This document shows positions 18,230-61,835 of a stretch of 64,000 nucleotides of DNA, piece after piece (position 1 is the stretch's first letter; each line of letters opens with the position of its first letter). The stretch spans positions 13,464 through 77,463 of the forward strand of contig NZ_CAURVV010000001.1 of NCBI RefSeq assembly GCF_963528315.1. The letters run 5' to 3'. The stretch comes from an uncultured Granulicatella sp. Its GTDB lineage: Bacteria; Bacillota; Bacilli; Lactobacillales; Aerococcaceae. Under the pieces are notes generated by a model. That model was given only the letters and a program-made list of their open reading frames with translations. It had not been told where the DNA came from and did no database searches. Position numbers and translations under genes: made by a program.

Positions 18230-18396
18230 CTACGGAATAAAAGAATTTCCTTACGTAGTAAGGTCGCCAGCAGCCTCGCTCTGCGAGTCTCATGGCTAAA
18301 ATTCGAGCCTCGGTCTCGAATTTTTCCTACAAAAAAAGCCAGAAATTTTCTGGCTTTTTTTGTTTTTACTACGAAGGAAATTCTTTTATTCCTTCG
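18230..18396 (+). repeat. Structured intergenic repeat, long form, copy 4
   Basis: Starts 5 nt after the pheT stop. Core GGTCGCCAGCAG. Hairpin 2 carries the compensated variant aattcgag/ctcgaatt. Hairpin 3 (aaaaaaagccagaaattttctggcttttttt) looks like a bidirectional terminator. Confidence 0.9.
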
Positions 18397-18558
18397 CTTG
18401 TAACGTTGAAAGAAAGAACTTTCTTTGTCTGTGTCTTTAATTTTCTTTAAATAAAAAAATATTTTTCCGCCTTTTTTTCGTATATATAAGTGAAGTGTAA
18501 TTTCTAGTGAAAAGTCAATGGAAGATACTTTCAAACAATAGAGAGAGGATGAAATTAT

Positions 18559-19446
18559 ATGAAAGAGAGAATTGAAGGTGCAAGACCAATGATGGATTTA
18601 ATGGCAAAGAAGATATTTAGTAATACGGAAATTACTACGCAATTTATACGAGACATATTTGATTTACCTGTCGAACAAGTAAAAATTTTAGAAAGTACAC
18701 AAATACACGAGTTTTATTTGGATGAATTTCCATTTTCCACCCATATTGATGTTTTGGCAGAATTGGATGATCAAACACAAATTATTATTGAAATACAATT
18801 AGCTCTACAAATTGACTTTATCAAGCGTTTGTGTTTATATTTATGTGAACAAGTTTCTAAAAATATGAATACGCATAAAAAAGATGGCACACAAACCTAT
18901 CATCTCGCAAAGGAAATGATTCCAGTATATGCCATTGCGATTACACAGGAACGATATTTTGAAGATGATCGAATGTATCATTCATTTAGCTTAAGAGATG
19001 ATGATTCTTACGAAGAATTAAAAGTATATTTTAAAGGAATCAAAGAAAAGCGTAACTTAATGCGTATGGCATTTTTAGAATTAGATAAATATGATCCAAC
19101 TAAAATAAAACATTATAGAAAAGTTCGATGGATTGAGTTTTTTGGTAACAAACCTTATACACAAAATCCAGAGGCAATACTAGAAACAGCAGATATGATT
19201 ATGAATCGAACCGGCTGGACAGAGGAGGAACGAACGATGTATGATGATCGAACAAGAAAATTAGATGGCTACTATGCCCATTTAGAGTATGTCGCAGAAG
19301 AAAAAGAACTAGCAAGAATGGAAGGTATATCAGAAGGTGCCATTACAACTATTGTTAGCTTAATCAAAGATGGAATCCTCACAATTGAAAGTGGGGCAAA
19401 GAGATTAAACATGTCAGAATCAGAATTAACTTCGTACTTATCATAA
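18559..19446 (+). CDS. Rpn family recombination-promoting nuclease / putative transposase (PD-(D/E)XK, YhgA-like), copy 1
   Basis: N-terminal MMDLMAKKIFSN...FIRDIFDLP and the IIIEIQ motif are typical of the Rpn/YhgA family. It is a paralog of 45119..46063. Confidence 0.7.
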   Translation: MKERIEGARPMMDLMAKKIFSNTEITTQFIRDIFDLPVEQVKILESTQIHEFYLDEFPFSTHIDVLAELDDQTQIIIEIQLALQIDFIKRLCLYLCEQVSKNMNTHKKDGTQTYHLAKEMIPVYAIAITQERYFEDDRMYHSFSLRDDDSYEELKVYFKGIKEKRNLMRMAFLELDKYDPTKIKHYRKVRWIEFFGNKPYTQNPEAILETADMIMNRTGWTEEERTMYDDRTRKLDGYYAHLEYVAEEKELARMEGISEGAITTIVSLIKDGILTIESGAKRLNMSESELTSYLS

Positions 19447-19450
19447 AAAT

Positions 19451-19499
19451 AAAAAGTTGTTACATCCTTATTAGTAGATAAGGAGTAACAACTTTTTTT
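19451..19499. terminator. Bidirectional intrinsic terminator
   Basis: aaaaagttgttac...gtaacaacttttttt long hairpin between convergent genes. Confidence 0.7.
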
Positions 19500-19532
19500 G
19501 TCAAACAAGCAAAGAAAATTTTTATTCGTTCT

Positions 19533-23138: not shown

Positions 23139-23214
23139 AGGATTTAGTTATAGTAGCATTAGGACGCAAGCAGCCACCTGGCGGTGTCTCATTGCTGTTA
23201 CTATGAGAATCCTT
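23138..23214 (+). repeat. Structured intergenic repeat, short form, copy 5
   Basis: aaggatttagttatagtagca...GGACGCAAGCAG-hairpin-TCTCATTGC...ctatgagaatcctt. It lacks hairpins 2 and 3. Confidence 0.85.
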
Positions 23215-23671: not shown

Positions 23672-23745
23672 ATGGATTTGTCTATAGTAGCATTAGGATG
23701 GCAGCAGCCCTGCGGTCTCTCATTGCTGTTACTATGAAAATCCTT
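23672..23745 (+). repeat. Structured intergenic repeat, short form, copy 6
   Basis: Same orientation as copy 5 and a nearly identical right half (tctcattgctgttactatgaaaatcctt). Confidence 0.85.
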
Positions 23746-23838: not shown

Positions 23839-23921
23839 TGCGGCCGGCGGGACTTGAACCCGCACAGGTATACACCCACTGCCCCCTCAAGACAGCGCGT
23901 CTGCCATTCCGCCACGACCGC
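23839..23921 (-). tRNA. tRNA-Leu (anticodon GAG), type II with long variable arm; CCA not encoded
   Basis: Reverse complement is GCGGTCGTGGCGGAATGGCAGACGCGCTGTCTTGAGGGGGCAGTGGGTGTATACCTGTGCGGGTTCAAGTCCCGCCGGCCGCA. The acceptor stem pairs, the anticodon loop is TTGAGGG and the T-arm is GGTTCAAGTCC. Confidence 0.9.
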
Positions 23922-33020: not shown

Positions 33021-33096
33021 ATGACTTTCTAATGTAGCAATGGACGGTAGCAGCCTCGCAAAGCGAGTCTCATACTCACGCTACATTGGAAAGTAT
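33021..33096 (+). repeat. Structured intergenic repeat, short form, copy 7
   Basis: atgactttctaatgtagca-ATGGACGGTAGCAG-ctcgc aaa gcgag-TCTCATACT...gctacattggaaagtat. Confidence 0.85.
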
Positions 33097-33154: not shown

Positions 33155-33296
33155 ATAAATGACTCATAATAGTAGCAAAAGTACTAGAAGCCGAGTGGCT
33201 TCTAGTACAGGAAATTTCGAGACCTTAGGCTCGAAATTTAGCAATGAGACAGCTTTGCTGGCTGCTTGCGTCCTAGCTACTATTATGAGTCATATT
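33155..33296 (-). repeat. Structured intergenic repeat, long form, copy 8
   Basis: Reverse orientation. Core GGACGCAAGCAG...TCTCATTGC. Hairpin 2 has a compensated insertion (aaatttcgag/ctcgaaattt). It ends 4 nt from the ATPase stop codon. Confidence 0.9.
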
Positions 33297-33299
33297 TTT

Positions 33300-35177
33300 T
33301 TATAGTTTTTTAAGTAAACGTAATCCGTTTAAAATTACTAAGATGGTGCTTCCTTCGTGTCCGATAACGCCTAAAGGTAAGTTAATGAATTGGAAGACAT
33401 TCGCTAAAATTAAAATCGTGATTACTGATAATGAGAACACAATGTTTTGTAAAATAATGTTCTTCATTTTTTTAGATAACTCGTGACCATATTTAATTAA
33501 TGATAAATTATTTTTCAATAATACAATATCACTTGCTTCAATTGCTAAAGCAGTACCTTCACCAATGGCAATCCCAACGGTTGCATTTGCAAGAGCAGGA
33601 GCGTCATTAATACCATCTCCAACCATGGCTACAGAAACACCTTTATCAGATAAATTCTTAACATAAGTTGCTTTATCTTCAGGTAAACAGTTTGCTTGAT
33701 AATCAGAGATTTCTAAGTGTTTTGCTACAGCTTCGGCAGTTGATTCTGAATCACCAGTCATCATAATGGTTTGAATATTTTCTTTGTTAAAGTAGTGTAA
33801 TACAGATTGGCTACTTTCTTTAATTTCATCTGTAATGGCATAGAAACCAATGAATTGTCCATTTTTCTCGATTGCTAAAACAATTTCACCTTGTTCTAAG
33901 TGTCTTTCAATGTCAGAAGCTAATGCTGTGTGTTGTTTCCAGTCTTCATCAATCCAAGCTAATTTACCAATTTTCCAAGTTGAACCTTGAGCTGTTGCAA
34001 CTAATCCATTTCCAATCACTTCTTCAAAGCTGTCGAAAGTAATAGAATCTGAATTTTTGTAAGCTTGTGTATAAGTTGTAATTGATTTTCCTAATGGATG
34101 AGTTGAACGAATTTCCATTTCATACATCATTGCATGAACTTCTTCTTCGTTTTCATTTACAATTACTGCATGTTGAACAGTTGGTTTTCCTTTTGTTAAT
34201 GTACCTGTTTTATCTAAAACAATAGATTGAATAGAAGATAATTGTTCTAAAGATTCTCCACCTTTTAATAAAATCCCTTGTTTTGCTGCATTAGATAAAC
34301 TTGCTAAAATAGCAGGGCTAGCAGATGCAACTAAGGCACATGGTGACATTACTGTTAATAAAATCATTCCTCTATAGAAAGATTCTTGCCATGACCATTG
34401 GAATCCGAAGTAGAAGAATGCAATCGCTAATGGTACGAATACTAATACAAATTTTACATATTGATCTTCGATTTTGTTTAAGAAGCTACTTGTTTTTGTT
34501 TCTTGTTCTTGAGCTTCTTCTACTAATCGAATGATAGAAGCCATCACAGTTTCATCTGCATTTTTATGTACAGTTGCTGTACAAGATTGATGTAAATTAA
34601 TACTTCCTGCAAAAATTTCTTCGCCCACTTTTTTGTTAGCTGGAAGTGGTTCACCATTAATCATACTTTCATCGAATAAGCTTTCACCATCTGTTAGAAT
34701 AGCGTCCATTGGAACAGCTTCCCCTTTTTTAATGAAAATTATATCATCAATAACTAAATCTTCAACGTCTACTGTTTCATAGTGACCATCACGAATACGT
34801 GTCGCTGTTTTTGGTTGTAAGTTTAATAATTCTGTCATTGATTTTTGACTTTTTGCCATTGCATATTCTTCAAGAGCTCCACTTAATGAGAAAATAAAAA
34901 TTAATAAAGCTCCTTCTAACCAGTAACCAATAATTGAAGCACCGATTGCCGCTAATACCATTAATAAGTCAACATTTAAATGTTGTTCTTGGAAAGTTTC
35001 TTGAATTCCTTCAACGGCTGAGTGGAATCCACCAACTAAGAACGCTGCCAAGTAGCAAATCACAGATACTAGATTCAATCCGTGGAAGCTAGCAGCTAGT
35101 CCTAAAATAATTAATGTTCCGCAAGTAATTGTATAACGAATTTGTTTTTGTTCTAAAATATTCATAATTTTTTTCAC
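33300..35177 (-). CDS. P1B-4-type heavy-metal P-type ATPase (PfeT/ZosA/CtpD-like Fe(II)/Co(II) exporter)
   Basis: DKTGTLT phosphorylation site, TGDS and GDGINDAP motifs, the SPC motif (MSPCALV) instead of CPC, and no N-terminal HMA domain. Confidence 0.8.
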   Translation of the reverse strand: MKKIMNILEQKQIRYTITCGTLIILGLAASFHGLNLVSVICYLAAFLVGGFHSAVEGIQETFQEQHLNVDLLMVLAAIGASIIGYWLEGALLIFIFSLSGALEEYAMAKSQKSMTELLNLQPKTATRIRDGHYETVDVEDLVIDDIIFIKKGEAVPMDAILTDGESLFDESMINGEPLPANKKVGEEIFAGSINLHQSCTATVHKNADETVMASIIRLVEEAQEQETKTSSFLNKIEDQYVKFVLVFVPLAIAFFYFGFQWSWQESFYRGMILLTVMSPCALVASASPAILASLSNAAKQGILLKGGESLEQLSSIQSIVLDKTGTLTKGKPTVQHAVIVNENEEEVHAMMYEMEIRSTHPLGKSITTYTQAYKNSDSITFDSFEEVIGNGLVATAQGSTWKIGKLAWIDEDWKQHTALASDIERHLEQGEIVLAIEKNGQFIGFYAITDEIKESSQSVLHYFNKENIQTIMMTGDSESTAEAVAKHLEISDYQANCLPEDKATYVKNLSDKGVSVAMVGDGINDAPALANATVGIAIGEGTALAIEASDIVLLKNNLSLIKYGHELSKKMKNIILQNIVFSLSVITILILANVFQFINLPLGVIGHEGSTILVILNGLRLLKKL

Positions 35178-37204: not shown

Positions 37205-37346
37205 AGACTTTCCTGATATAGCAGTATTAGGACGCTAGCAGACAGCTTTGCTGTCTCATAGCTAAAATTTGAGCCTAAGGTCTCAAATTTCCCTGCGATA
37301 GAATCTGTTTTACAGATTCTATTGCTCATACTGCTATGGAAAGTCT
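37205..37346 (+). repeat. Structured intergenic repeat, long form, copy 9
   Basis: Arms agactttcctgatatagcagta / tactgctatggaaagtct. Core GGACGCTAGCAG...TCTCATAGC, a compensated GCTA/TAGC pair. Confidence 0.9.
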
Positions 37347-37425
37347 TTTTTTATTTATACTATTTGTTATTTCTCTTTATTTAAAATATAATAAATGGTA
37401 TAAAAATATTTTAAAGGAGAAGGTT

Positions 37426-38328
37426 ATGGCAGTAGTAAATTTTGGAAATTCTTGTTCGTGGATTAATATAAATTCAGATTTAATTAGTGAGTATTCATCT
37501 ATCTATGAAACGTATGAAATTGATAGTGAAATGTTGGAGTACGCCCTTGATGAACATGAGCGTGCTCATATTGAATACGATCGACGTAAAGAAACATTGA
37601 TTGTTATTTACAATGTGATTAAGCAATCATTAAATTCAAATCAATACGAAACAATTCCTATGACATTTATTGTACGTAAAAATCAAATTATTACGATTAC
37701 AAACCATCATAATGAATATATTGTTCAAGCAATGAAAGAGGAATTAAAAGAAAGACCAGATATATCTCTGTTTACATTTTTATTTTCTAGTTTGTTTATG
37801 ATTACGGAATATTATTTCCCAAAAATTGAAAAATTAAAAAAAGAACAAGAGTTATTAAGTCAAATGTTACGACAAAAAACAACAAAGGAAGATTTGTTTG
37901 CCTTATCGGATTTGGAAATTGGTAGTGTGTATTTAGTTTCAGCTACTAAACAAAATGCGATTGTATTGGAGCAATTAAAAACTCAATCTGTATTTAAAGT
38001 TTTAGATGATGTAGAAAAAGAAGAGTTAGAAGATAGTTTAATTGAAGCAAAGCAGCTAGTGGAAATGACTTCGATTAATCTTCAAATTTTGCATCAATTA
38101 TCGGGTACATATAATAATGTTTTGAATAATAATTTGAATGATACGATGAAATTATTAACCGTTATTTCTATTCTTTTAACGGTTCCGGATATTGTGACGG
38201 GATTTTTTGGAATGAATGTGCAAATTCCTTTTACAGAACATTCTCATGGTTGGGGAATTGTATTAGGAATTATTATAGCAATTTGGATACTAGTCAGTGT
38301 GAGATTGTCTCGTCTTATAAAAAAGTAG
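37426..38328 (+). CDS. corA: CorA-family divalent cation transporter, paralog 1
   Basis: 300 aa. GMN signature (FFGMNVQIPF) before the last TM helix. Confidence 0.8.
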   Translation: MAVVNFGNSCSWININSDLISEYSSIYETYEIDSEMLEYALDEHERAHIEYDRRKETLIVIYNVIKQSLNSNQYETIPMTFIVRKNQIITITNHHNEYIVQAMKEELKERPDISLFTFLFSSLFMITEYYFPKIEKLKKEQELLSQMLRQKTTKEDLFALSDLEIGSVYLVSATKQNAIVLEQLKTQSVFKVLDDVEKEELEDSLIEAKQLVEMTSINLQILHQLSGTYNNVLNNNLNDTMKLLTVISILLTVPDIVTGFFGMNVQIPFTEHSHGWGIVLGIIIAIWILVSVRLSRLIKK

Positions 38329-38335
38329 AGGGCGT

Positions 38336-38481
38336 GGAAATTGAGTTTTTGGTATAGTAGTACTAAGACGGCAGCAGACCTTCGGTCTCATGCCTAAAAT
38401 TTGAGCCTAGGTCTCAAATTTTCTTGCAATAGAATCTGTAGTCAGATTCTATTGCTCGTACTACTATAAAAACTCATTTCC
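38336..38481 (+). repeat. Structured intergenic repeat, long form, copy 10
   Basis: Arms ggaaattgagtttttggtatagtagtac / gtactactataaaaactcatttcc. Core AGACGGCAGCAG...TCTCATGCC, a compensated GGCA/TGCC pair. Confidence 0.9.
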
Positions 38482-38518: not shown

Positions 38519-38598
38519 TAAGTTTTTTGTACAGTAGAATTAGGACGCCAGAAACCCTGCGGTCTCATGGTTCATACTACTATAAAATATCATTTCCA
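38519..38598 (+). repeat. Structured intergenic repeat, short and degenerate form, copy 11
   Basis: GGACGCCAGAAA-ccctgcgg-TCTCATGGT core. It is flanked by partial duplications of the copy-10 right arm (catttccacttgRaacgaaaattatgagag occurs twice). Confidence 0.7.
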
Positions 38599-38734
38599 CT
38601 TGGAACGAAAATTATGAGAGAGAATATAAAAACTCATTTTTACTTGTGTTGTGTGTAATTTTTTTCAGTTTAGTTATTAGTATCAACCTTTTAAATTATG
38701 ATACACTTACGTAGATTAATGGAGGGAGATATTT

Positions 38735-39637
38735 ATGGTTGAAAAGAATTTTGGGCACTCATGTGCATGGATTAATATTAACTCAGAGGAGATTAATGAT
38801 TATTCTACAATTTATCAAACGTATCAAATTGATAAAGAAATGGTGGAGTATGCTCTTGATGAAAATGAAAGAGCACATATTGAATATTGTCGTCCAAAAG
38901 AAACATTAGTAGTGATTTATAATGTCATTAAACAAACGAAGAGAGAGAATCGATATGAGACCGTTCCAATGACTTTTATTGTTCGAAAGGATCAAATTAT
39001 TACGATTTCGAACCGACATAATGAGTATATTGTAGAGGCGATGAGAAAAGAATTGGAAGATAGACCGAATATGTCTCTGTTTACATTTTTATTTTCAAGT
39101 TTAATGATGATTACTGAAAATTATTTTCCAAAGATTGAAAGTTTAAAGAAAGAGCAAGAGTTAGTGAGTCTAAAATTGCGACATAAAACTACGAAGAAAA
39201 ATTTATTTGCTTTGTCTGACTTAGAGATTGGGAGTGTTTATTTAGTTTCAGCAACAAAGCAAAATGCGATTGTATTGGAACAATTGAAGAATCAGAGTTT
39301 ATTTAAGAAATTAGAATTTGCAGAAGAAGAAAAATTAGAGAATAGTTTAATTGAAGCGAAACAGCTAGTAGAGATGACTTCGATTAATCTTCAGATTTTG
39401 CAGCAATTATCGGGTACTTATAATAATGTGTTGAATAATAATTTGAATGATACAATGAAATTGTTAACAATTATTTCAATTTTATTAACGATTCCGAATA
39501 TTGTAACGGGATTTTTTGGAATGAATATTACGGTTCCTTTAACGGGTCTTGCGCATGGTTGGGGAATTGTATTAGGGATTATTGTGACAGTTATTGTCAT
39601 TGCAAGTGTCGTCTTGTCACGTTTTATTAAAAAGTAA
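38735..39637 (+). CDS. corA: CorA-family divalent cation transporter, paralog 2
   Basis: 300 aa with the GMN signature (FFGMNITVPL). Closely related to paralog 1 by eye. Confidence 0.8.
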   Translation: MVEKNFGHSCAWININSEEINDYSTIYQTYQIDKEMVEYALDENERAHIEYCRPKETLVVIYNVIKQTKRENRYETVPMTFIVRKDQIITISNRHNEYIVEAMRKELEDRPNMSLFTFLFSSLMMITENYFPKIESLKKEQELVSLKLRHKTTKKNLFALSDLEIGSVYLVSATKQNAIVLEQLKNQSLFKKLEFAEEEKLENSLIEAKQLVEMTSINLQILQQLSGTYNNVLNNNLNDTMKLLTIISILLTIPNIVTGFFGMNITVPLTGLAHGWGIVLGIIVTVIVIASVVLSRFIKK

Positions 39638-39645
39638 AAGGAGTA

Positions 39646-39791
39646 GAATTGAGTTTTTATAGTAGTACGAGTAGTAGAATCTGTTGTGACAGATTCTACT
39701 ACAAGAAAATTTGAGACTACAGGCTCAAATTTTAGCCAAGAGACCCGTAAGGGGCTACTGGCGTCTTAGTACTACTATATCAAAGAAACTC
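39646..39791 (-). repeat. Structured intergenic repeat, long form, copy 12
   Basis: Reverse orientation. The core is identical to copy 3 over gagacccgtaaggggctactggcgtc. Confidence 0.9.
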
Positions 39792-44808: not shown

Positions 44809-44935
44809 GGAACTTTCCTATAGTACTAGGACGCCAGTAGACCTTCGGTCTCTTGGCTAAAATTTGAGCCTAAGGTCTCAAATTTTCCTGTAATAAAAGC
44901 CGCTTTGCTTTTATTACTCGTACTATGGGAAAGTT
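44809..44935 (+). repeat. Structured intergenic repeat, long form, copy 13
   Basis: aactttcctatagtac-TAGGACGCCAGTAG-gacc ttc ggtc-TCTCTTGGC-hairpin 2-hairpin 3-gtactatgggaaagtt. Confidence 0.9.
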
Positions 44936-44981
44936 ATTTTTATCTTCAGGGGGAAGGGAGGAAGAATACGTACAAAAATGG

Positions 44982-45118: not shown

Positions 45119-46063
45119 TTATTCGTCAGCAGACATACATTCATCTAATTCTATTACGGAAATGCTCAATTGTTTTGCGCCTTCTTCTTTAGAAAGAAGA
45201 CCATCTTTAATCAAACTGATAATCATCATTTTCTTTCCTTGTTCGATACCTTCTACTTTACCTTCTGCTCTGCCTTCTGTTACCCCTTCCATCCTTGCAT
45301 CTTTCTTTTCTTTTTCTATAGTAGCTAAAAAACTTGAATATGCCTGAAGATATCGTGTTCTTTCATCGTACATTTCTCGTTCCTCCTTTGCCCAGTCTAC
45401 ACGACTCACAATTCGATCCGCTTGTTCTAATATTTTTTCAGGACTTTGTGTATATGGTTGATTCCCAAAAAACTCAATCCATCGTACTTTATTGTATTCT
45501 TGTATCTTATCTTTATTATACTTCTCTAATTCTAAAAATGCCATTAAAGCTAAGTCTTGTTCTTCTTCAAATCCTTTAAAATAGACTTTCAATTCATCAT
45601 TTGTATTTTTTTCTTTGAAGCAGAATACGTGAACCATTTTATCGTCCTTAAAATACCTTTTTTGAGTGATGGCAATGGTGTACACTGGTAACAATTCTTC
45701 TGCGATTTTATGGGTTTCTACTCCAACTTTTTTATGTTTATCTGCATTTTTAGTCACTTGATTACATAGATATAACCATAAACGCTTAATAAAGTCAAAT
45801 TGATAAGCTACTTGGATTTCAATTATCACTTGTGTACCATCATTTAATTCGGCTAATACATCAATACTGGTGACATAAGTTTTTATATCTTCAAATTGAT
45901 GACTGTGTATTTGAGTTCCATCAAGTATTTTTACATGATGGACAGGTAAGTCTAGAATGTCCCTTATAAACTGTGCTGTTATTTCAGGATTACTGAAAAC
46001 TTTCTTTGCCATTAAATCCATCATTGGCCTTGCATCTTTGATACGTTCTACCATTTTTATCAT
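45119..46063 (-). CDS. Rpn family recombination-promoting nuclease / putative transposase, copy 2
   Basis: A paralog of 18559..19446 (ARPMMDLMAKKVFSNPEITAQFIRDILDLP...IIIEIQ). Its C-terminus has extra EG-repeats. Confidence 0.7.
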   Translation of the reverse strand: MIKMVERIKDARPMMDLMAKKVFSNPEITAQFIRDILDLPVHHVKILDGTQIHSHQFEDIKTYVTSIDVLAELNDGTQVIIEIQVAYQFDFIKRLWLYLCNQVTKNADKHKKVGVETHKIAEELLPVYTIAITQKRYFKDDKMVHVFCFKEKNTNDELKVYFKGFEEEQDLALMAFLELEKYNKDKIQEYNKVRWIEFFGNQPYTQSPEKILEQADRIVSRVDWAKEEREMYDERTRYLQAYSSFLATIEKEKKDARMEGVTEGRAEGKVEGIEQGKKMMIISLIKDGLLSKEEGAKQLSISVIELDECMSADE

Positions 46064-49914: not shown

Positions 49915-50050
49915 GGAGTTGAGAAAACAAGCAGAAGCATCCCGCTTCTCGCCTAAGTTGACTGAAGTCCTTGGGCCGATAGTAATGTTTATTTAATGAA
50001 GACATTGGCAGCGGGGATATTTTGTTCTCGTTGCTTTTTTGCTTTTTTCT
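49915..50050 (+). promoter_or_regulatory. L20 leader (ribosomal protein autoregulatory leader) with attenuator terminator
   Basis: Structured GC-enriched leader between the promoter and infC. A gcagcg...cgttgc hairpin followed by TTTTTTGCTTTTTT lies at 50008-50050. The position matches the Firmicutes L20 leader. Confidence 0.6.
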
Positions 50051-52286: not shown

Positions 52287-52430
52287 GAAATTGACTTTTC
52301 CGGTTGTAGCAATGGACGCCAGAAGACCTGCGGTCTCTTGGCCAAAAATTGAGCCTGTAGTCTCAATTTTTCCAGTACTAGAATCCGATGGGACGGCTTC
52401 TAGTACTTGTGCACGTGGAAAAGTCATTTC
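52287..52430 (+). repeat. Structured intergenic repeat, long form, copy 15
   Basis: Arms gaaattgacttttccggttgtagca / tgcacgtggaaaagtcatttc. Core GGACGCCAGAAG-gacc tgc ggtc-TCTCTTGGCC. Hairpin 2 is one bp shorter in both arms (aattgag/ctcaatt). Confidence 0.9.
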
Positions 52431-52532
52431 TATTTTGGAGTGAGGTTATGGGAGGGCGTTTAGGAGAGTGAACTTTCTAAAGATTTCTTAATCTCAAAAT
52501 ACTTTCTTATAGTTTCATTATTCTAATTTTAA

Positions 52533-52616: not shown

Positions 52617-53057
52617 ATGACTTTTGAAGATAAATTTATGGAAGTTCAAATTGGCATGATTTCGTTAGCAATGGAATATGTCCAAAATCAAGCAGAAAAA
52701 GTATATATTTATGCAATAGCAGACAGTTTGTATAGTTTTAAGCCATTTTATAAAATTAATGGTATTGTAATTGGAATGGAAGAAGTTAATGAAGTTGTGA
52801 CAAAAAAAGTAGATGATTCTGATAATATGGCATTTTCTTTATTGAAATATGGAACTGAAGATATGCAGAAATTGCAGGAGGTTTGCCAAGAATATAATCG
52901 TGAACATCCGACTGAGATGTGGTTGATTTATGATGCACAGAAAAATACCCTTAATAGTCGCTATAGCTATGAAGGGCGTTATGAGAAGGATGAAGAATTG
53001 CTTCCACGTTTAGAGTTTGAAAAATGGTTTGAGGAAGTAAAAAGTAAGGAACTGTAG
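52617..53057 (+). CDS. Putative polymorphic-toxin immunity protein, family A copy 1 (possibly remote YezG/DUF600-like)
   Basis: 146 aa, acidic, with no signal peptide. It is near-identical to 56828..57271, and a third 3' fragment lies at 63706. Confidence 0.45.
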   Translation: MTFEDKFMEVQIGMISLAMEYVQNQAEKVYIYAIADSLYSFKPFYKINGIVIGMEEVNEVVTKKVDDSDNMAFSLLKYGTEDMQKLQEVCQEYNREHPTEMWLIYDAQKNTLNSRYSYEGRYEKDEELLPRLEFEKWFEEVKSKEL

Positions 53058-53068
53058 GAGAATAAGAT

Positions 53069-53542
53069 ATGTACCAACAAAATCAATCAATTATCTATCC
53101 CTTGCTAACTGATGCGCTCTTATTGGAAAGAGAAGTAGTGTGGAGAGTTAAACTGCCTGATGATTATAAGGAATTTATAAAGAAAGAGAATGGAGTCATT
53201 CCCTCAAAAAGGTATTTTCATTTTGAGCATAATGAGAAAGTAATTGATCGTTTTTTAGCTATACTAGCTATTTCAGGAGAGAAGACAGAAGAGGATTACG
53301 ATATAGGAGTTGTGAGTACGCAATTGGAAGGTCGTATTGTATTTGATGAAGATAATGTTGGAATGCAACTAATCCCTATAGCTGCATTATTTGGTGGTGA
53401 TTTTGTTTGTCTAAATTATGTCGAGGATTCCGAAAATCCAAGCATTTGTATCTGGTATCATGAAGAGTCCTATGAGCTGGAGCCTGCTATAGAGTTTTTA
53501 GCTAACAACTTCACAGAGTTTTTAGCAATGCTACAGGATTAG
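53069..53542 (+). CDS. SMI1/KNR4 (SUKH-1) family immunity protein
   Basis: LPDDYKEFIKKENG...IPIAALFGGDFVCLNY...FTEFLAML pattern is typical of the SUKH superfamily. Confidence 0.75.
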   Translation: MYQQNQSIIYPLLTDALLLEREVVWRVKLPDDYKEFIKKENGVIPSKRYFHFEHNEKVIDRFLAILAISGEKTEEDYDIGVVSTQLEGRIVFDEDNVGMQLIPIAALFGGDFVCLNYVEDSENPSICIWYHEESYELEPAIEFLANNFTEFLAMLQD

Positions 53543-53630
53543 CTATATTATGGATATTAATTTAACGCGAAGCAAATAAACGATTAAATGACTGCTTAAC
53601 GTAGGAATTCTCAGATGAAAGGATGATACA

Positions 53631-53966
53631 ATGGTAGAATATGAAAAACATAATTTAATAGTAAATAGTAAAGTTATAAAATGTTTTGAATTTGAAATCC
53701 GAAATGTAATTGAACATGGTGATGAATTTATTGTTTTATTGGAGATTCCTTTTGATAATGAGAGTGAAAAGAATAACATTTTAAGGATTGATGCGAGTGG
53801 AAATGTAGTTTGGGAGATAAATAATAGTGGATACAGTAATAATAGTTATCCCTTTGAACAGATGACTTTGGGAGATGGCTGGCTTTATGCAACTGATTTT
53901 TATGCCAGAAGGTTAAAAGTTGATATAAAAACGGGAAAAATAGTTGATATGGCTATATCAAAATAA
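53631..53966 (+). CDS. Hypothetical small protein (candidate immunity protein)
   Basis: 111 aa with RBS AAAGGATG. I recognise no family. Context only. Confidence 0.35.
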   Translation: MVEYEKHNLIVNSKVIKCFEFEIRNVIEHGDEFIVLLEIPFDNESEKNNILRIDASGNVVWEINNSGYSNNSYPFEQMTLGDGWLYATDFYARRLKVDIKTGKIVDMAISK

Positions 53967-54007
53967 TAGAAGTTTGAGAATTTCAGAAATATGTGGAGGG
54001 CTTATAA

Positions 54008-54409
54008 ATGAGCGAAGCTTACTTGCCTACAAGAGATAGTTTGGGTTATCAGAATGTCAAACAAGCTTTAGAGAAAATTTTTTCGATTGATCTTGATACG
54101 ATTAAGATTAATGGAGGAGATGATGAAAATTTTAATTTTCCGTTCATGTATAATGGTTATCATATGACAATAGGTATTTCATCAACCGGTAAAAATACGC
54201 AATTGGAAGCAGGAAAGGGTGGCTTATTTAACATTTGGTTCGCTCAAACGGATGAACAGAGATTTTCAATCAATTTTTTATCCAAGGTTATTGATGATAA
54301 GAGTATAAGAAGAGTGTATGGCTGTGATGAAGAATCAGTCGAACGGACTTTGAATATATTGAAAGACTTTCTAAATTCAGATAAAGCGGAAGTTCTATTG
54401 AAGAATTGA
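54008..54409 (+). CDS. Hypothetical small protein (candidate immunity protein)
   Basis: 133 aa with RBS GGAGGG. I recognise no family. Context only. Confidence 0.35.
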   Translation: MSEAYLPTRDSLGYQNVKQALEKIFSIDLDTIKINGGDDENFNFPFMYNGYHMTIGISSTGKNTQLEAGKGGLFNIWFAQTDEQRFSINFLSKVIDDKSIRRVYGCDEESVERTLNILKDFLNSDKAEVLLKN

Positions 54410-54621
54410 ATCTATGTCTAGATTTCATCACGGGATTTGTGAAATCGAAATTAGATCAAATAGATATTAATTTATCTCCAGAAGATTTACAGTTGAGGTC
54501 AAAAAACTTCAAAGAATTTTGAATGGTCTACAAAGTAAAGGACTACCTTTGTGTCAAAACCAAGATGCAACTCAGAAACTATAGAAACGTTTTGACAATA
54601 AATTAGATTGAGGTATTAAAA

Positions 54622-54763
54622 ATGGATGTAACAAAATTAAATAAACTATCCTATATTTATATTCTGAAAGCAATGCTGAAGCTGTGATCTAGTTAAGTCT
54701 ATTAATAGTGAAGATAAACTCTTTATCTTGCTTGATAATTATAACTGGGATAAAGGTTTTGAA
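54622..54763 (+). pseudogene. Frameshifted 5' fragment of a DUF4274-like gene
   Basis: Aligns at nucleotide level with the first ~140 nt of the intact 63234 ORF and its upstream ~60 nt. It has a 1-nt deletion and an in-frame stop, and is cut off at 54763. Confidence 0.65.
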
Positions 54764-54922
54764 GGAAGAATCAAAGATTTCTTTAAAGCTGGTGATACTG
54801 GATTAGGTAATACTTGGTATCATCATTAAGATGGTAAGACTCTTCAAGAGGTGGATAGTGCTATTTATAGACGTTTTACTCATAGAGGTGGCATCTCAAT
54901 TCTGAATTTAGGAGGTAAATAA
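54764..54922 (+). pseudogene. Remnant of an HNH/EndoVII-fold (WHH/AHH-type) nuclease toxin C-terminal domain
   Basis: Translates GRIKDFFKAGDTGLGNTWYHH*DGKTLQEVDSAIYRRFTHRGGISILNLGGK*. There is an in-frame TAA at 54827 and no start codon or N-terminal region. The stop lies 1 nt before the SUKH ATG. Confidence 0.6.
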
Positions 54923-54923
54923 A

Positions 54924-55379
54924 ATGGTATTAACTATAGACTCATTTGGTCATGCGGAAGAAGAAGATATCAAACTTTTAGAAAAACGATTTGATATCAA
55001 ACTTCCAGTGGACTACAAAGAATTTTTAGTTACACAAAATGGAGGAAGGAATTTATCCTATAAATTTGAAAATTCAATAAAGATCAATCAAATAGATGAA
55101 GTTATCAATATTGATACTATGTTTGGTATAAATACGGGAATTAAAAATGCTGATATAGAGCAGTGGACAGAAGAATATCGGAATGATATTTTTGAACATT
55201 CCATTATTATTGGTGACACTATTCAGCACGGATTTCTAATATTTTGGCAAAGTGATGATGAGAATGAAGGCCTATATTATTACGACGATACGTATCAATT
55301 AGAAGCCTCAAATGATGAAAATAACGCCTATTTTTTAGCTAAGACATTTTCAGAATTTATGGATTTAATACAGAACTAA
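54924..55379 (+). CDS. SMI1/KNR4 (SUKH-1) family immunity protein
   Basis: IKLLEKRFDIKLPVDYKEFLVTQNGG...FSEFMDLI. Confidence 0.75.
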   Translation: MVLTIDSFGHAEEEDIKLLEKRFDIKLPVDYKEFLVTQNGGRNLSYKFENSIKINQIDEVINIDTMFGINTGIKNADIEQWTEEYRNDIFEHSIIIGDTIQHGFLIFWQSDDENEGLYYYDDTYQLEASNDENNAYFLAKTFSEFMDLIQN

Positions 55380-55456
55380 GAGCATAATTGAGGGAATTAT
55401 CTGAATAGATGTTCCCTTAAATTTTCATTAGAATTGAAGAGGAGTTACCAACGAAA

Positions 55457-55942
55457 ATGACAGTTGAGAAGCAAATTCAAGATAAAATATATGAATTAAT
55501 AAATAATGTTAATAAGACCATTCCTGTTGATTGGGATGAAATTTATATAAATTCTGAAATGTCGGAAACTGGTGGGAATGTATATTTTTTCTTCAAATTA
55601 CCAGATAATGATAAATTATTTTATAGCTTATTAATTCCTGATGATTTTAAAGTTGAGGAGAAGACTTTTGAAAAAATGGATTATCAGAATTATGTTTTAG
55701 CAAGAGAACTATGGAATATTTTTGAAAATAATCATATTGAGGTATGGAAAAATGCAAGTTTTATTTATAAAAATAATAAACTTAGCAGACATTTTGATTA
55801 TGTTGATTGGAATGCTTCACAATTTGGACCAACTGATCGTATAAACTATTTCAGGTATAAATACATGAAAGTTGCACCAAAAGATAATATTCAAGAACAA
55901 CTTTTTCAAGAAATGGAAAAGTATCAAAGCAAATTTTTATAA
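55457..55942 (+). CDS. YezG/DUF600 family immunity protein
   Basis: IYELINNVNKTIPVDWDEIYINSEMSETGGNVYFFFK... matches the YezG-type N-terminal pattern. Confidence 0.65.
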   Translation: MTVEKQIQDKIYELINNVNKTIPVDWDEIYINSEMSETGGNVYFFFKLPDNDKLFYSLLIPDDFKVEEKTFEKMDYQNYVLARELWNIFENNHIEVWKNASFIYKNNKLSRHFDYVDWNASQFGPTDRINYFRYKYMKVAPKDNIQEQLFQEMEKYQSKFL

Positions 55943-56035
55943 AATTTTCAAGGTTAGAAAAAATTAGTCATATTTATTAAGTTTTTTTCAAAAGTAATCG
56001 ATTTAAAATTAATATACAGATACTGGTATAATTGA

Positions 56036-56236
56036 GAAATAAGTTCCTGGAAAGTATTTGAATCAGTAAAGAAAAGAGATTACAAAACTTCGGAAATAAG
56101 GGAAGCTCACTTGGATGAATTAAATGATATGGAAACAATGCAATTAGTTCCATCTGTTGTTAATAGTAAATTTGAACATCTAGGTGGGATAGCTGAAGTT
56201 AAAAAAACTATTTGTTTTATAGAAAGAAAGGTTTAA
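56036..56236 (+). pseudogene. Remnant of a second HNH/EndoVII-fold toxin C-terminal domain
   Basis: The open frame has no start: EISSWKVFESVKKRDYKTSEIREAHLDELNDMETMQLVPSVVNSKFEHLGGIAEVKK... It shares the xH(H/L)...T(L/M)Q(E/L)V...H(R/L)GG pattern with the 54764 remnant. The stop lies 7 nt before the next ATG. Confidence 0.55.
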
Positions 56237-56243
56237 AAAAACA

Positions 56244-56723
56244 ATGCAAATAAATCATAAAACTTTTGGTAAAATAAAATTCAATTACGGTTGGACAAAA
56301 GATATTTCTCTAGATATTTTCAATAAGCACCATATTTTGGAAATCAATATTGATGCGGATGAAGATGCTGAATTTGAAACTAATCAGGAAAAAGCTTATA
56401 GATTTTTCAATAATCACTTAGATGAAATAGTAAAAGAGGCAGATTCGGCAATTATATCATATTACAATCGTGAAATATCAGATATTGTTTCAAGTTACAC
56501 GAATAATAACGAAAAGAAATATTTTTTAGATATCATTGGAGATAAAGATAAAATTTATTCTTTGTTGCAACCTAAACAAATCATGTTTCCTTTAACATTT
56601 GATGAAAATATTGAAGAGTTTGGTTTTTTATGTGAGTGTGATTGGGATAAAGAAAATGGCATAGGAATAAAATTTGTTAATGGCGAATTGTCTGAAATTG
56701 GTTATCAGGATATACTCCTATAA
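56244..56723 (+). CDS. Putative cognate immunity protein (unassigned family)
   Basis: 159 aa and acidic, immediately downstream of the toxin remnant. Confidence 0.45.
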   Translation: MQINHKTFGKIKFNYGWTKDISLDIFNKHHILEINIDADEDAEFETNQEKAYRFFNNHLDEIVKEADSAIISYYNREISDIVSSYTNNNEKKYFLDIIGDKDKIYSLLQPKQIMFPLTFDENIEEFGFLCECDWDKENGIGIKFVNGELSEIGYQDILL

Positions 56724-56827
56724 GTATATATTTTCTTATAATTATTTGTAGTTTTGAAGTTAATTATAAGATTGATGGTGAACCAAAATCTGAAATAATA
56801 AAAAGTATAAATAGAAGGAGACGAAAG

Positions 56828-57271
56828 ATGAATAAATTCGAAGATAAATTTATGGAAGTTCAAGTTGGCATGATTTCGTTAGCAATGGAGTATGTCCAAA
56901 ATCAAGCAGAAAAAGTATATATCTATGCGATAGCGGACAGTTTGTATAGTTTTAAGCCATTTTATAAAATTAATGGTATTGTAATTGGAATGGAAGAAGT
57001 TAATGAAGTTGTGACAAAAAAAGTAGATGATTCTGATAATATGGCATTTTCTTTATTGAAATATGGAACTGAAGATATGCAGAAATTGCAGGAGGTTTGC
57101 CAAGAATATAATCGTGAACATCCGACTGAGATGTGGTTGATTTATGATGCACAGAAAAATACCCTTAATAGTCGCTATAGCTATGAAGGGCGTTATGAGA
57201 AGGATGAAGAATTGCTTCCACGTTTAGAGTTTGAAAAATGGTTTGAGGAAGTAAAAAGTGAGGAACTGTAG
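56828..57271 (+). CDS. Putative immunity protein, family A copy 2
   Basis: Differs from 52617..53057 by only a few substitutions outside the first 4 codons. Confidence 0.45.
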   Translation: MNKFEDKFMEVQVGMISLAMEYVQNQAEKVYIYAIADSLYSFKPFYKINGIVIGMEEVNEVVTKKVDDSDNMAFSLLKYGTEDMQKLQEVCQEYNREHPTEMWLIYDAQKNTLNSRYSYEGRYEKDEELLPRLEFEKWFEEVKSEEL

Positions 57272-57282
57272 GAGAATAAGAT

Positions 57283-57756
57283 ATGTATAAACAAGATCAA
57301 TCAATTATTTATCCTTTGCCAACTGATGCGCTATTATAGGAAAGAGAAGTGGCGTGGAGAGTTAAACTGCCTGATGATTATAAGGAATTTATAAAGAGAA
57401 AAAATGGTTTTTGCCCTTCTAAAAATTTATTTTCTTTAACAAATAGGTCCTTTTTGATTGAGCGATTCTTGAGTATATTAGAAAACACAAAAGACAAACC
57501 ACTTGGCATGTATGACATTGATGTTGTAATGTCCGAACTGGATGAAAGATTGTTTGTCCATGAAGATATTTTGGGATTTGAGTTGATTCCCATAGTAGCA
57601 TTGTATGGTGGAGATTTTCTTTGTCTAAACTATTTGGAGGATACTGAAAATCCGAGTATTTGTATTTGGTATCACGAAGAGTCCTACGAGTTAGAGCCAG
57701 CTATAGAGTTAGTAGCTATTAACTTTACAGAGTTTTTAGTTATGCTACAGGATTAG
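57283..57756 (+). pseudogene. SUKH family gene disrupted by a nonsense codon (mosaic paralog of 53069..53542)
   Basis: Codon 19 is TAG (57337-57339) where the paralog has TTG. The ends are near-identical to the paralog and the central ~50 codons are divergent. A GTG at 57349 could allow re-initiation. Confidence 0.7.
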
Positions 57757-57837
57757 CTATGTGTGGTGTAGTAGAATTCGTGATTGATAGAGTTCCTAAG
57801 ATAAATTGAGCATTAAAGAATCGAGGAGTAAATAATA

Positions 57838-58182
57838 ATGAAAGAAATACCATCAAAAAAAGATGATATGTTAGAAATTTATGAAGACAATGGTAAGTAT
57901 ATTTTAAAGTATCCGACTTTCAATATCACCTTGCCAGAGGTTTCTAAAGAAATCCCTAAAGAAGCAGTGGATAGCTATTTAGCAGGAGAACATAATGGTG
58001 AAGAATTAATTAATTATGCTAATTTCGGATTTTGGGAATCAAAAATTAGTCAAGAAGATGCTAACATACAATTTTTAAGAGATAATCCAGAATTTCTTCT
58101 TATTGATACAGATAGAAAGAGAGCCTATTTCTCCGAAAAAGAATTTGAAGAATTGTTGAAAAAAGCTCATATGGAAAGCTGA
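57838..58182 (+). CDS. Hypothetical small protein (candidate immunity protein)
   Basis: 114 aa with RBS GAGGAG. I recognise no family. Confidence 0.35.
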   Translation: MKEIPSKKDDMLEIYEDNGKYILKYPTFNITLPEVSKEIPKEAVDSYLAGEHNGEELINYANFGFWESKISQEDANIQFLRDNPEFLLIDTDRKRAYFSEKEFEELLKKAHMES

Positions 58183-58341
58183 ACTAAATGTTGTTCTGCC
58201 TAAGAAAGTTTCAGTAAGGATAGATACTGTTTTTGAAAAAGATTCTATATCAGTCAGACTAAAAATGTTTAACGTACGTTCTCAAATTGAAGGAGAGCCA
58301 CTTAGAATTAAGTAGATAAGAAATAAATCAGGGGATTAAAA

Positions 58342-58752
58342 ATGTTTGAAAATCAATTAAGTCAATTGTTTAATGATATAGCAAATAATGTAAATCGTAT
58401 TATTCCAGTAACTTGGAATGATTTATACTTTAATGTTGAGTTAAAGGAAGGGGACGGAGAAGTTTTATTTTATTTTAATACGAAAGAAAATCCTGAAAAA
58501 TATATTTTCTCACATGATATGCCAGTAATTTATGACATTCCATTTTCTGAATATATGGACACCTTTAATCAATTAATGAGCATTTCTAGAAACATTTTAG
58601 AGGTTTTAGAAGATAATAATCAACCTGAATGGTATGCAATGGTTTTAATAGTGAAATCTCGGAAACAATTAAAGGTTGAGTTTGATTATACTGATTGGTT
58701 TGCTAGTCCGTTTACCTCGAATCAAAGGCTGTCTTTTTTTAAATATAAATAG
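58342..58752 (+). CDS. YezG/DUF600-like immunity protein, C-terminally truncated by a premature TAG
   Basis: LFNDIANNVNRIIPVTWNDLYFNVELKEGDGEVLFYFN. After the TAG at 58750 the same frame continues LGEEPENNDLLQLFKEMEEYQNKS*, which aligns with the C-terminus of the 55457 paralog. Confidence 0.55.
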   Translation: MFENQLSQLFNDIANNVNRIIPVTWNDLYFNVELKEGDGEVLFYFNTKENPEKYIFSHDMPVIYDIPFSEYMDTFNQLMSISRNILEVLEDNNQPEWYAMVLIVKSRKQLKVEFDYTDWFASPFTSNQRLSFFKYK

Positions 58753-58828
58753 TTAGGAGAAGAACCTGAAAATAATGATTTACTTCAACTTTTTAAAGAA
58801 ATGGAAGAATATCAAAACAAAAGTTAAA

Positions 58829-58895
58829 CATCTTTGATGAACGCTTGAAAGACCTAGAGTATTTCCCATATGACCTTCTAGTCCAAGAAAACTAG
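58829..58895 (+). pseudogene. Orphan 3' fragment of a PoNi-like gene
   Basis: It encodes ...FDERLKDLEYFPYDLLVQEN*. The last ~67 nt are nearly identical to the 3' end of the 61836..62501 ORF. Confidence 0.65.
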
Positions 58896-58990
58896 GGGGG
58901 GATGGGGTTCTAACCAGTTTTAATTGAAAAGGGGAATATCTTCACCTATAGTAACTTTAAAATCGACCATAGCATAGGAGGCATCAGTAG

Positions 58991-59413: not shown

Positions 59414-59481
59414 TTTTTCTAACTTCGAAGATTTTCTAGATAAGTAGATGTGCTATTTTCAAAAAGGAATGAAGTAAGAAT

Positions 59482-59892: not shown

Positions 59893-59951
59893 GATGTATA
59901 GTAGTAAATGACCATTGTTGAGTATATAAGTATGAAAATTGGAAGGAAATC

Positions 59952-60437: not shown

Positions 60438-60467
60438 CTGTGAGATAAGAAAAAAAGGAGTGCATAC

Positions 60468-61133: not shown

Positions 61134-61154
61134 GTTGAGAAAAGGAGTTAACAT

Positions 61155-61814: not shown

Positions 61815-61835
61815 GTTGAGAAAAGGAGTTAACAT

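Follow-up and report, generated by a model that had tools for sequence, protein, structure and literature searches.

The pneumococcal BOX, RUP and SPRITE elements are interspersed repeats of a member of the Lactobacillales, about 100–200 bp long, highly base-paired and modular with size variants; they are over-represented downstream of genes and in convergent intergenic regions (Croucher et al. 2011, PMC3049150). The terminal arms of BOX and RUP pair mutually, and SPRITE combines a long duplex with a U-rich tract that resembles a terminator; these elements are old and now nearly immobile, and their mobilising enzyme is uncertain (PMC3049150). The bcr1 repeats of the Bacillus cereus group, about 155 bp long, keep a cruciform-like structure through compensatory changes (summary in Delihas 2011, PMC3184786). 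Here we analyse a structured repeat from a 64,000-nt stretch of DNA of an uncultured Granulicatella sp. (contig NZ_CAURVV010000001.1, positions 13,464–77,463), hereafter called “the window”. A preliminary description of positions 37205–38481 of the window, made by reading the sequence, had proposed that the helices of this repeat covary and that its structure rather than its sequence is conserved; this part contains two copies of the repeat with a CorA gene in between.

The Granulicatella repeat resembles BOX, RUP and SPRITE in all the traits listed above, from the size range and mutually pairing arms to the terminator-like tract, the location at gene 3' ends, the modular variants, the age and the uncertain mobilising enzyme. 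It is unlike them in having a conserved multi-way junction among its six helices, a density of about 1 copy per 4.6 kb, termini that covary instead of being conserved, and a documented strict Watson–Crick covariation. It is also tied more tightly to stop codons and gene orientation, 88% of copies following a co-oriented gene compared with a coding bias of ~61–63% in the pneumococcal repeats (PMC3049150). As an interspersed repeat of Firmicutes with covariation, bcr1 represents a precedent; however, it is flanked by 5-bp direct repeats and its distribution is not conserved between strains (PMC3184786), whereas for the Granulicatella repeat no target duplication was found and occupancy is conserved in all strict orthologous comparisons. 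The likeness to BOX, SPRITE and bcr1 rests on architecture as described in these publications (PMC3049150, PMC3184786), not on sequence comparison. Set beside BOX, RUP, SPRITE and bcr1 by description, the repeat is a new family within the structured small interspersed repeats, and a full-text literature search returned no paper linking Granulicatella to such repeats. The EFAR repeats of E. faecalis may be a further similar kind.

The closest matches to the window DNA are Granulicatella elegans ATCC 700633 and species-level Granulicatella metagenome-assembled genomes (MAGs), with 90–95% identity; judging by these matches, the window can be assigned to G. elegans or a sister species. Its G+C content is 32.8%. 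The nhmmer profile search finds 14 copies of the repeat in it (10 full and 4 short), one fewer than the 15 counted in the preliminary description, and the short copies keep only the outer stem P1 and the first hairpin (P2/H1). If the window density holds throughout, the genome-wide total would be roughly 380 copies. The repeat is a lineage-specific, high-copy interspersed family of nested palindromes in the G. elegans clade, to which it is confined. Zero copies were found in four loci of the nearest available relatives (PheT 66–79% identical, 75 kb), where ~16 are expected, and plasmid and phage collections gave no match to the family. In viral contigs, a pattern of the P3 apex gave 43 chance palindromes, none of them matching the model. 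Tandem Repeats Finder returned nothing relevant in the window.

The repeat unit of ~170–180 bp consists of an A-rich leader, the long outer stem P1, which measures 17–30 bp and is interrupted by an internal loop, the conserved core and a T-tract. In the core, the helix P5 of three pairs (xGG...CCx') encloses P2/H1 and P3 and is followed by P4, which makes six helices counting P1; P2 (GCCA/TGGC) leads through a 2x2 internal loop to the hairpin H1. All window copies adopt the same fold. In the first copy of the described part (copy 9 in the preliminary numbering), the minimum free energy (MFE) is −66.9 kcal/mol versus −30.8 kcal/mol in shuffles (z = −10.6), and the opposite strand is no worse at folding. 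End profiles of 76 copies place the unit between GAAATA outside and GACTT inside at the 5' end, and between AAGTC inside and TTTTCTWWTTT outside at the 3' end, the consensus ends being GAAATAGACTT...AAGTCTTTTCT. Tandem arrays are spacer-free with a period of ~180 nt.

A covariance model (CM) of the core was run over the window and 93 Granulicatella loci fetched by a motif scan, which gave 198 hits in 738 kb, and the best-scoring 150 of these 198, from 13 genomes, were aligned. In this alignment, counted over its 148 distinct rows, standard pairs fill 95.0% of helix cells, compared with 78.6% in column shuffles and 29–48% with slid partners; double changes occur at 30 of 40 pairs and affect 854 cells (206 shuffled, 70–158 slid). 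Since both controls have weaknesses, two tree-aware tests were added. With a neighbour-joining tree and Fitch parsimony, 316 same-branch double changes stand against 293 single ones, and the double-to-single ratio is, for example, 23:1 (pair 53/69), 20:0 (pair 90/119) and 14:0 (pair 16/43); individual pairs show 13–23 independent same-branch double changes. Changes share a branch in 82% of cases at paired columns and in 11% at unpaired column pairs. The second test was an R-scape-like null, for which 40 null alignments were made by assigning the substitutions inferred on a branch to random columns. Eighteen of the 40 proposed pairs outscore all null scores and are spread over H1, P2, P3, P4 and P5, while only 9 non-proposed pairs are significant; among the 18 is the P5 pair 9/81 (AU:95 UA:21 GC:11 CG:4). 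P1 is not alignable column by column and was tested by arm-duplex energies, which are −28.8 kcal/mol for a copy's own arms and −15.0 kcal/mol for arms from different copies.

The paired variants named in the preliminary description are all present: GCCA/TGGC, GCTA/TAGC (37234–37237 with 37259–37262), GGCA/TGCC and GCAA/TTGC in the inner helix; ttcgc/gcgaa, ctcgc/gcgag, gacc/ggtc, gacagc/gctgtc and cagc/gctg in hairpin 1; the C-G, T-A and A-T swaps in hairpin 2; and the outer-stem variants as listed there. Its claims that at least four helices covary and that structure rather than sequence is conserved are borne out by the tests above, which put the covariation beyond phylogenetic expectation and add the helix P5 that it had missed. 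It had also named the scenario that could undo this, namely covariation inherited from a few subfamilies copied whole. Some linkage exists, e.g., between columns 19 and 41 and among H1 stem types. However, 148 of the 150 aligned sequences are distinct, 134 distinct P2 x H1 x P3 x P4 combinations occur, and in the four-gamete test all four combinations are found in 103 of 120 pairs of variable base pairs, nested same-helix pairs included. The four-gamete result and the recurrent same-branch doubles mean that the double substitutions were not inherited from a few subfamilies; with 18 pairs also significant under a null that preserves the phylogeny, such an origin is extremely improbable. The covariation is real, and the fold is kept by recurrent, independent compensatory change.

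The spectrum of pairs is informative on whether the constraint acts on RNA or on DNA. After exclusion of five systematically mismatched positions, the helix cells (n = 5196) comprise 5093 Watson–Crick pairs, 34 G·U (0.65%), 35 A·C and 34 other mismatches, and the sense-orientation copies between co-directional genes have 12 G·U versus 10 A·C. As controls we used canonical terminator hairpins from the same genomes and relatives (9 pairs or more, folding energy no higher than −9 kcal/mol, 6 or more T among the 8 nt of the tail), passed through the same folding pipeline; these contain 33 G·U in 269 pairs (12.3%) and 1 A·C, i.e., 33:1. The difference is significant for the G·U fraction (Fisher p = 2e-18) and for the G·U:A·C ratio (p = 4e-7). 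Among 41 single changes in the core between orthologous copies, 34 create mismatches and 7 create wobbles. Since G·U is as rare as A·C, unlike in terminators, the constraint is one of strand-symmetric Watson–Crick complementarity in which wobble is not tolerated. This signature is DNA-hairpin-like and favours a folded DNA strand over a functional RNA. The preliminary suggestion of “selection on a folded RNA or ssDNA” (single-stranded DNA) thus holds as regards the preserved structure, while the signature of RNA was not found. Our preferred, though tentative, explanation, to which we give somewhat less than an even chance, is that the selected entity is the folded DNA strand, read by a structure-specific protein during copying or maintenance of the element.

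The unpaired bases also deserve attention. The preliminary description had noted that the unpaired segments GGAC, GCAG and TCTCA stay nearly constant, and in the alignment C13, G18 and C40, all located in these segments, are invariant (150/150), while A12, also in them, is A in 139/150. The bulged T of P3 is present in 149/150 copies; T37 is invariant and faces C in 117 copies (a C·T mismatch) and A in 32. The bulged T and the C·T mismatch persist, so the fold is not a self-perfecting palindrome. Conserved extrahelical or mismatched bases on one strand are typical of protein-read hairpins such as attC, IS200/IS605 ends and REP. The H1 loops are strand-specific and T-first, and their reverse complements are rare. 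The facing unpaired bases of the P2 internal loop (columns 19/41; 37239 and 37258 in copy 9) covary without complementarity: C·A in 105 copies, T·T in 36, A·T in 5 and only 4 intermediates, which is significant in the tree-aware null. In addition, the ACC type of H1 and the P3 apex (37240–37258 and 37272–37286; all copies) both read AG(A)CC-loop-GGTCTCA, and in both a T of the 3' side is unpaired or mismatched; they look like two similar hairpins in direct orientation that may have arisen by internal duplication.

The folded-strand explanation has known counterparts. In REP/BIME/REPIN elements, which are associated with RAYT transposases (Y1 HUH enzymes), and at IS200/IS605 ends, it is folded ssDNA that is recognised, and the shape of the mismatched or bulged hairpin outweighs the sequence of its stem. 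Like REP and REPIN, the Granulicatella repeat is extragenic, lies at the 3' ends of transcription units and forms clustered arrays, and the (G/A)TAG at the foot of its P1 may correspond to the GTAG of REP; like them and IS200/IS605 ends, it lacks classical terminal inverted repeats and target duplications. It is unlike REP/REPIN in being much larger and multi-branched, and in being oriented by genes, not by the replication fork. In integron attC sites, too, structure prevails over sequence, and the extrahelical bases mark the active strand of the folded ssDNA. The repeat is similar to attC in its fixed orientation directly past the stop codon of a gene, and one repeat hotspot has a cassette-like gene pair between direct copies; it differs in having housekeeping flanking genes instead of cassettes and a much higher sequence conservation. 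The R and L boxes of attC with the GTTRRRY core are absent from the consensus ends of the repeat, and no integrase was seen. By the logic of REP/REPIN–RAYT, IS200/IS605 ends or attC sites, a single strand of the repeat would fold into a hairpin or cruciform, and a structure-specific protein would recognise it during copying or maintenance.

The location of the repeat is as peculiar as its pairing. Gene context was derived from simple open reading frame calls on all loci, and 112 copies were classified. Between co-directional genes, 59 copies lie in sense and 13 in antisense (binomial p = 4e-8); 39 copies lie between convergent genes (4.9-fold enrichment) and 1 between divergent genes. In total, 98/112 copies are downstream of a co-oriented gene, and in these 98 the core starts at a median of 28 nt past the stop codon (interquartile range 23–42, with 78% within 10–50 nt), and P1 thus starts within about 0–20 nt of the stop; the more distant copies are mostly second or third members of tandem arrays. 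Roughly one in five genes in the genome has a copy just past its stop codon. Orientation by replication strand was rejected: the window has a positive GC skew throughout, and still its four copies on the minus strand follow genes of that strand, and over all loci 11/11 copies with a co-oriented lagging-strand gene upstream follow the gene.

The element has the shape of a terminator (A-tract, stem, T-tract). P1 closes 0–2 nt ahead of TTTTCT, with T at positions +1 to +4 in 51–74 of 76 copies, and a stem with a T-tract accordingly stands 3' of the co-oriented gene. No second terminator is predicted after copy-bearing genes, whereas adjacent genes without a copy do have one. A relative without the family has a canonical bidirectional terminator, unrelated in sequence, 14 nt past the pheT stop, at the very place that the element takes in the window. 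The position, the missing other terminator and the pheT comparison together indicate that the element occupies the terminator slot. The terminator type of stem evolution, with G·U tolerated and A·C not, is absent from the element and present in canonical terminators. Insertion into the loops of pre-existing terminators was also considered. About 7 loci have unique long flank palindromes which resemble host terminator stems; most copies instead carry family-consensus flanks, and the pheT terminator of the relative is of unrelated sequence. This origin, though conceivable, was set aside. Under the folded-strand explanation, P1 and the T-tract would form a terminator-like shell. Such a shell would explain why copies survive or are tolerated only downstream of genes and in the orientation of the gene; there they probably take the place of its usual terminator.

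The same facts can be read at the RNA level. The repeat would then be a cis-acting structured RNA in the 3' untranslated region (3' UTR) of the upstream gene, which terminates transcription by P1 and the U-tract and binds a protein or protects the 3' end; stable 3'-UTR-derived RNAs might be released, and covariation would reflect selection on the RNA fold at each locus. The 88% of copies behind a co-oriented gene with the core ~27–28 nt past the stop, the T-tract on the sense side without another predicted terminator, the strand-asymmetric, T-first H1 loops, and core stems and junctions whose rate of change in resident copies is 3–5 times below that of third codon positions all agree with it, as does the detection of the related Streptococcus element SSRC8 as an RNA (see below). 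Nevertheless, the rarity of G·U, equal to that of A·C, contrasts with the terminators of the same genomes, wobbles are not enriched among single changes of orthologues (7/41), and P1, the would-be terminating stem, decays at about the neutral rate. With these points against it, and a further one from Streptococcus given below, we consider the structured-RNA alternative rather unlikely.

Outside Granulicatella, a part of the repeat has a relative in Streptococcus. The sole relative in Rfam is the family RF02616 (SSRC8_2), which the window matches with 43.3 bits (E = 3e-11) over model positions 149–209 of 281, compared with a gathering score of 72. Conversely, when the Granulicatella model is applied to a Streptococcus-type contig with the full SSRC8_2 locus, only the P2/H1 + P3 module matches (42.3 bits). 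SSRC8_2 shares with the repeat this 60-nt module with its C·T mismatch and bulged T, as well as a long closing stem, a terminal U-run and a place downstream of a co-oriented gene, and the stems of the module covary between the genera (AG/CT in Granulicatella, GA/TC in Streptococcus). It is unlike the repeat in being a single locus, not a high-copy family, and in having the module inverted relative to the closing stem; the module thus has the opposite orientation relative to the RNA, which counts against the structured-RNA alternative. SSRC8 was seen by Northern blot and by rapid amplification of cDNA ends (RACE) in S. pyogenes, and its segment 149–247 recurs in several streptococci (Tesorero et al. 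2013, PMC3675131). In our sample, SSRC8_2 (281 nt, 25-bp closing stem, U-run) occupies L161:393-673 (-), downstream of a co-oriented gene for an LPXTG cell-envelope protein, and SSRC8_1 adjoins it on the other strand at L161:969-1118 (+), so that the locus resembles a larger Granulicatella element. A metagenome scan with the Streptococcus-type pattern gave 5 loci, of which only L161 is real and equals the SSRC8 locus.

Comparison of orthologous copies allows the evolution of the repeat in place to be followed. All 25 strict ortholog pairs are occupied (25/25), and the sharing of copies at orthologous sites across species indicates that they predate the species splits. Divergence between orthologues is 2.2% in junction motifs, 4.0% in core stems, 19.5% in hairpin loops and about 10–19% in P1, while third codon positions of the upstream gene diverge by 11.0%. 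In P1, 86 mismatch-giving and 16 G·U-giving single changes stand against 15 compensated doubles. The slow core beside a near-neutral P1 means that the core is held in place in resident copies. Its 28 Watson–Crick doubles versus 41 singles are far above the expectation for independent mutations; many of them occur in contiguous blocks of whole-hairpin replacement, and in L042/L099 six differences lie inside columns 15–43. On the folded-strand explanation, short-patch gene conversion anchored in the conserved junction motifs would clean the core hairpins of resident copies, and the copy-specific P1 would decay almost neutrally.

Conversion of this kind leads to the second alternative, in which no selection on structure takes place: complementarity would result from intrastrand template switching, with one arm copied onto the other, combined with gene conversion that swaps whole hairpins among the many copies, the conserved junctions serving as homology anchors. 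The symmetric mismatch spectrum, the clustering of ortholog differences in whole-hairpin blocks, the faster divergence of loops than of third codon positions (19.5% versus 11%) and AAA/TTT loop swaps on identical stems are consistent with it. So are complementary multi-base changes (CTGG/CCAG versus AAAA/TTTT) and a complementary single-base indel, 165 nt apart, in the P1 arms of L075/L079. These orthologous copies (L075:1640-1810 and L079:7470-7640, reverse strand) differ at 3 positions in ~90 aligned bases of the upstream coding flank, and their P1 extension sequences are unique among the sampled loci. On the other hand, the perfecting of palindromes should erase the bulged T (149/150) and the C·T mismatch (117/150), yet both persist across genera. 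Nested same-helix pairs occur in all four combinations with matched arms, which conversion with random end points would break, and conversion by itself, being indifferent to mismatches, cannot bring pairing back. Between orthologues singles exceed doubles (41 versus 28 in the core, 110 versus 15 in P1), so correction is not fast. Loop inversions are rare overall; frequent hairpin inversion as the main process was rejected because reverse complements of most loops are absent. We regard a purely mutational origin of the pairing as unlikely, if anything slightly more so than a role as RNA.

Recombination between copies is best seen downstream of pheT. In G. elegans ATCC 700633 (L061:1100-3260) an AbiEi/AbiEii toxin–antitoxin pair lies between two copies of the repeat in direct orientation; in one MAG the only copy is chimeric, its 5' arm of one type and its 3' arm of the other, with mismatched P1 arms; another MAG has two inverted copies (MAG loci L019:5560-5800, L044:2495-2920); and the window has an Rpn-type nuclease gene at this site (18241–19530 for the whole site). 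The site looks like one of cassette gain and loss by recombination between repeat copies. The chimeric copy and the cassette flanked by two copies fit the mutational alternative as well. The copy number of tandem arrays varies between species. A solo 5'-arm remnant (TTTATATCATAGTAGCATAGA) is located downstream of a full copy in L061:7040-7070 and in L019 and is deleted in the window (~23240).

The first Rpn-type gene of the pheT hotspot (18559–19446, +) has a paralogue at 45119–46063 (-); both encode PD-(D/E)XK Rpn-type nucleases or putative transposases (PF12784, 57% identical), both lie within ~180 nt of a copy, and the first is missing from the orthologous site in other species. This adjacency is weak evidence because copy density is high, and the Rpn/PDDEXK_2 nuclease was rejected as mobiliser, its homologue in L031 not being beside a copy. 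A tblastn search of the window and the 93 loci with an IS200 TnpA query found one decayed IS200/IS605-type tnpA fragment (L086:6693-6870; 43% identity over 58 aa, in-frame stops), and no other RAYT or TnpA gene was found in the ~870 kb sampled. The fragment is 170 nt downstream of a copy and was dismissed, being decayed and separated from the copy by sequence without similarity to the module. No insertion sequence (IS) with ends like those of the repeat was seen in the sampled DNA. The termini of the element covary (GACTT/AAGTC, GAGTT/AACTC, GAATT/AATTC, GGATT/AATCC), unlike those of a classical miniature inverted-repeat transposable element, which makes a sequence-specific transposase that binds terminal repeats unlikely, in agreement with the preliminary description. 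By its covarying termini and the lack of a target duplication, the repeat departs from such an element, whose mobiliser is a DDE transposase. REP units are short imperfect palindromes with GTAG conserved at the 5' end, and pairs of them form one long hairpin; here the P1 5' arm has the (G/A)TAG motif and the 3' arm its complement, in a unit of ~170 nt with three different internal hairpins.

Several points weigh against the folded-strand explanation. No transposase, RAYT or integrase was linked to the repeat in the DNA sampled. No target-site duplication was found in 76 copies, since the A-rich 5' and T-rich 3' sides are complementary and not direct repeats. No clean empty site, only tandem copy-number differences, appeared in ~70 ortholog-type flank matches, whose loci were selected for containing copies, which creates a bias against finding empty sites. 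With neither empty sites nor target duplications, only the number of copies and their dispersal speak for mobility. The orientation of known ssDNA transposons is that of the replication fork, unlike that of the copies, which follows the genes. The gene-sense orientation, the T-first loops and the one-sided T-tract would fit an RNA role equally well. A part of the paired change between orthologous copies is whole-hairpin replacement by recombination or gene conversion, for which selection is not needed, and choosing the best 150 of 198 copies slightly inflates the 95.0% paired. Finally, SSRC8, the relative in Streptococcus, is known to be expressed as RNA (PMC3675131).

Two traits of the repeat are unusual: it covaries in a strictly Watson–Crick manner while extrahelical bases are conserved, and its position behind stop codons is almost obligatory. 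In a broader form of the folded-strand explanation, which we consider improbable, a previously unrecognised structure-specific ssDNA system of Firmicutes keeps the helices Watson–Crick-perfect at hundreds of gene ends. Such a system could be a recombinase or transposase that reads the two-hairpin module with its extrahelical T and C·T mismatch and targets terminators, or it could consist in re-templating of arm from arm; the 60-nt module in SSRC8 would then represent the minimal recognition unit of a cross-genus system, and gene cassettes might also recombine at the element, as at the pheT hotspot. A protein partner, if it exists, would extend REP/RAYT-like or attC-like biology to the Lactobacillales. 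In any case, the covariation of the repeat is unambiguous and, against the internal terminator control, non-RNA-like, which shows that compensatory patterns alone need not mean a functional RNA and offers the G·U to A·C ratio as a concrete discriminator of RNA-level and DNA-level constraint. With roughly 1/5 of gene ends filled in an oral commensal and opportunistic pathogen, the repeat bears on the annotation of terminators, 3' UTRs and candidate small RNAs, and on assembly.

Table 1. Repeat copies in the window and structural parts of copy 9 (positions in the window)
Feature	Position	Strand	Evidence and remarks
Full copy	4803–4948	+	nhmmer, CM; orthologous copy in locus L092
Full copy	6011–6147	-	nhmmer, CM; 18 nt past stop of minus-strand gene 6165–6806
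Full copy	6891–7021	-	nhmmer, CM; divergent intergenic region, exception to stop-codon rule
Full copy	18241–18389	+	nhmmer, CM; 16 nt past pheT stop, variable hotspot
Short copy	23145–23196	+	nhmmer; P3+P4 deleted; orthologues in G. elegans ATCC 700633 and a MAG are full
Short copy	23680–23720	+	nhmmer
Short copy	33023–33073	+	nhmmer
Full copy	33156–33283	-	nhmmer, CM; 17 nt past stop of minus-strand gene 33300–35177
Full copy (copy 9)	37205–37350	+	nhmmer E=2.9e-35, CM 115 bits; 13 nt past pepF stop codon (37192)
P1 5' arm (AGACTTTCC..ATAGCAGTAT), copy 9	37205–37227	+	MFE structure
P5, copy 9	AGG 37229–37231 with CCT 37292–37294	+	RNAalifold; encloses P2/H1 and P3
P2 GCTA/TAGC + 2x2 internal loop + H1 (AGACAGC-TTT-GCTGTCT), copy 9	37234–37262	+	
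P3 hairpin AAATTTGAGCC-TAA-GG(T)CTCAAATTT, copy 9	37265–37290	+	conserved bulged T at 37281
P4 hairpin, 14 bp, copy 9	37295–37325	+	14/14 pairs with double changes, 9 significant in tree-aware null
P1 3' arm (ATACTGCTATGGAAAGTCT), copy 9	37328–37346	+	MFE structure; end profile AAGTC then TTTTCT; followed by T-tract 37347–37356
Full copy (copy 10)	38343–38481	+	nhmmer, fold, CM; 15 nt past stop of first CorA gene
Short copy (P1 + P2/H1 only)	38519–38570	+	nhmmer E=5.4e-07, fold; tandem, behind copy 10
Full copy	39645–39791	-	nhmmer, CM; between convergent genes
Full copy	44812–44941	+	nhmmer, CM
Full copy	52293–52431	+	nhmmer, CM; downstream of rpsI

Some features of the window accompany these copies (Table 1). 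At the Rfam gathering threshold the whole window gave only a tRNA gene (23839–23921, -) and the L20 leader (RF00558, 59.3 bits; 49923–50045, +) upstream of infC-rpmI-rplT, with no match on the repeat. The stretch 52617–64000 (11 kb) is an array of about 20 small genes, all on one strand and with many duplications among them; they encode polymorphic-toxin immunity proteins (SUKH/SMI1-KNR4, YezG-like, PoNi, Tdi1). The array has zero repeat copies inside, though copies are dense elsewhere in the window. Two tandem CorA-family paralogues (37426–38328 and 38735–39637; 75–80% DNA identity) each have their own repeat copy on the 3' side, and between them lie one short copy and more solo 3'-arm remnants (about 38590–38650). 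Similarly, two thioredoxin-like paralogues (4949–5599 and 6165–6806, both -), 91% identical over 300 nt, are both associated with copies, which suggests a segmental duplication that may have taken a repeat copy along.

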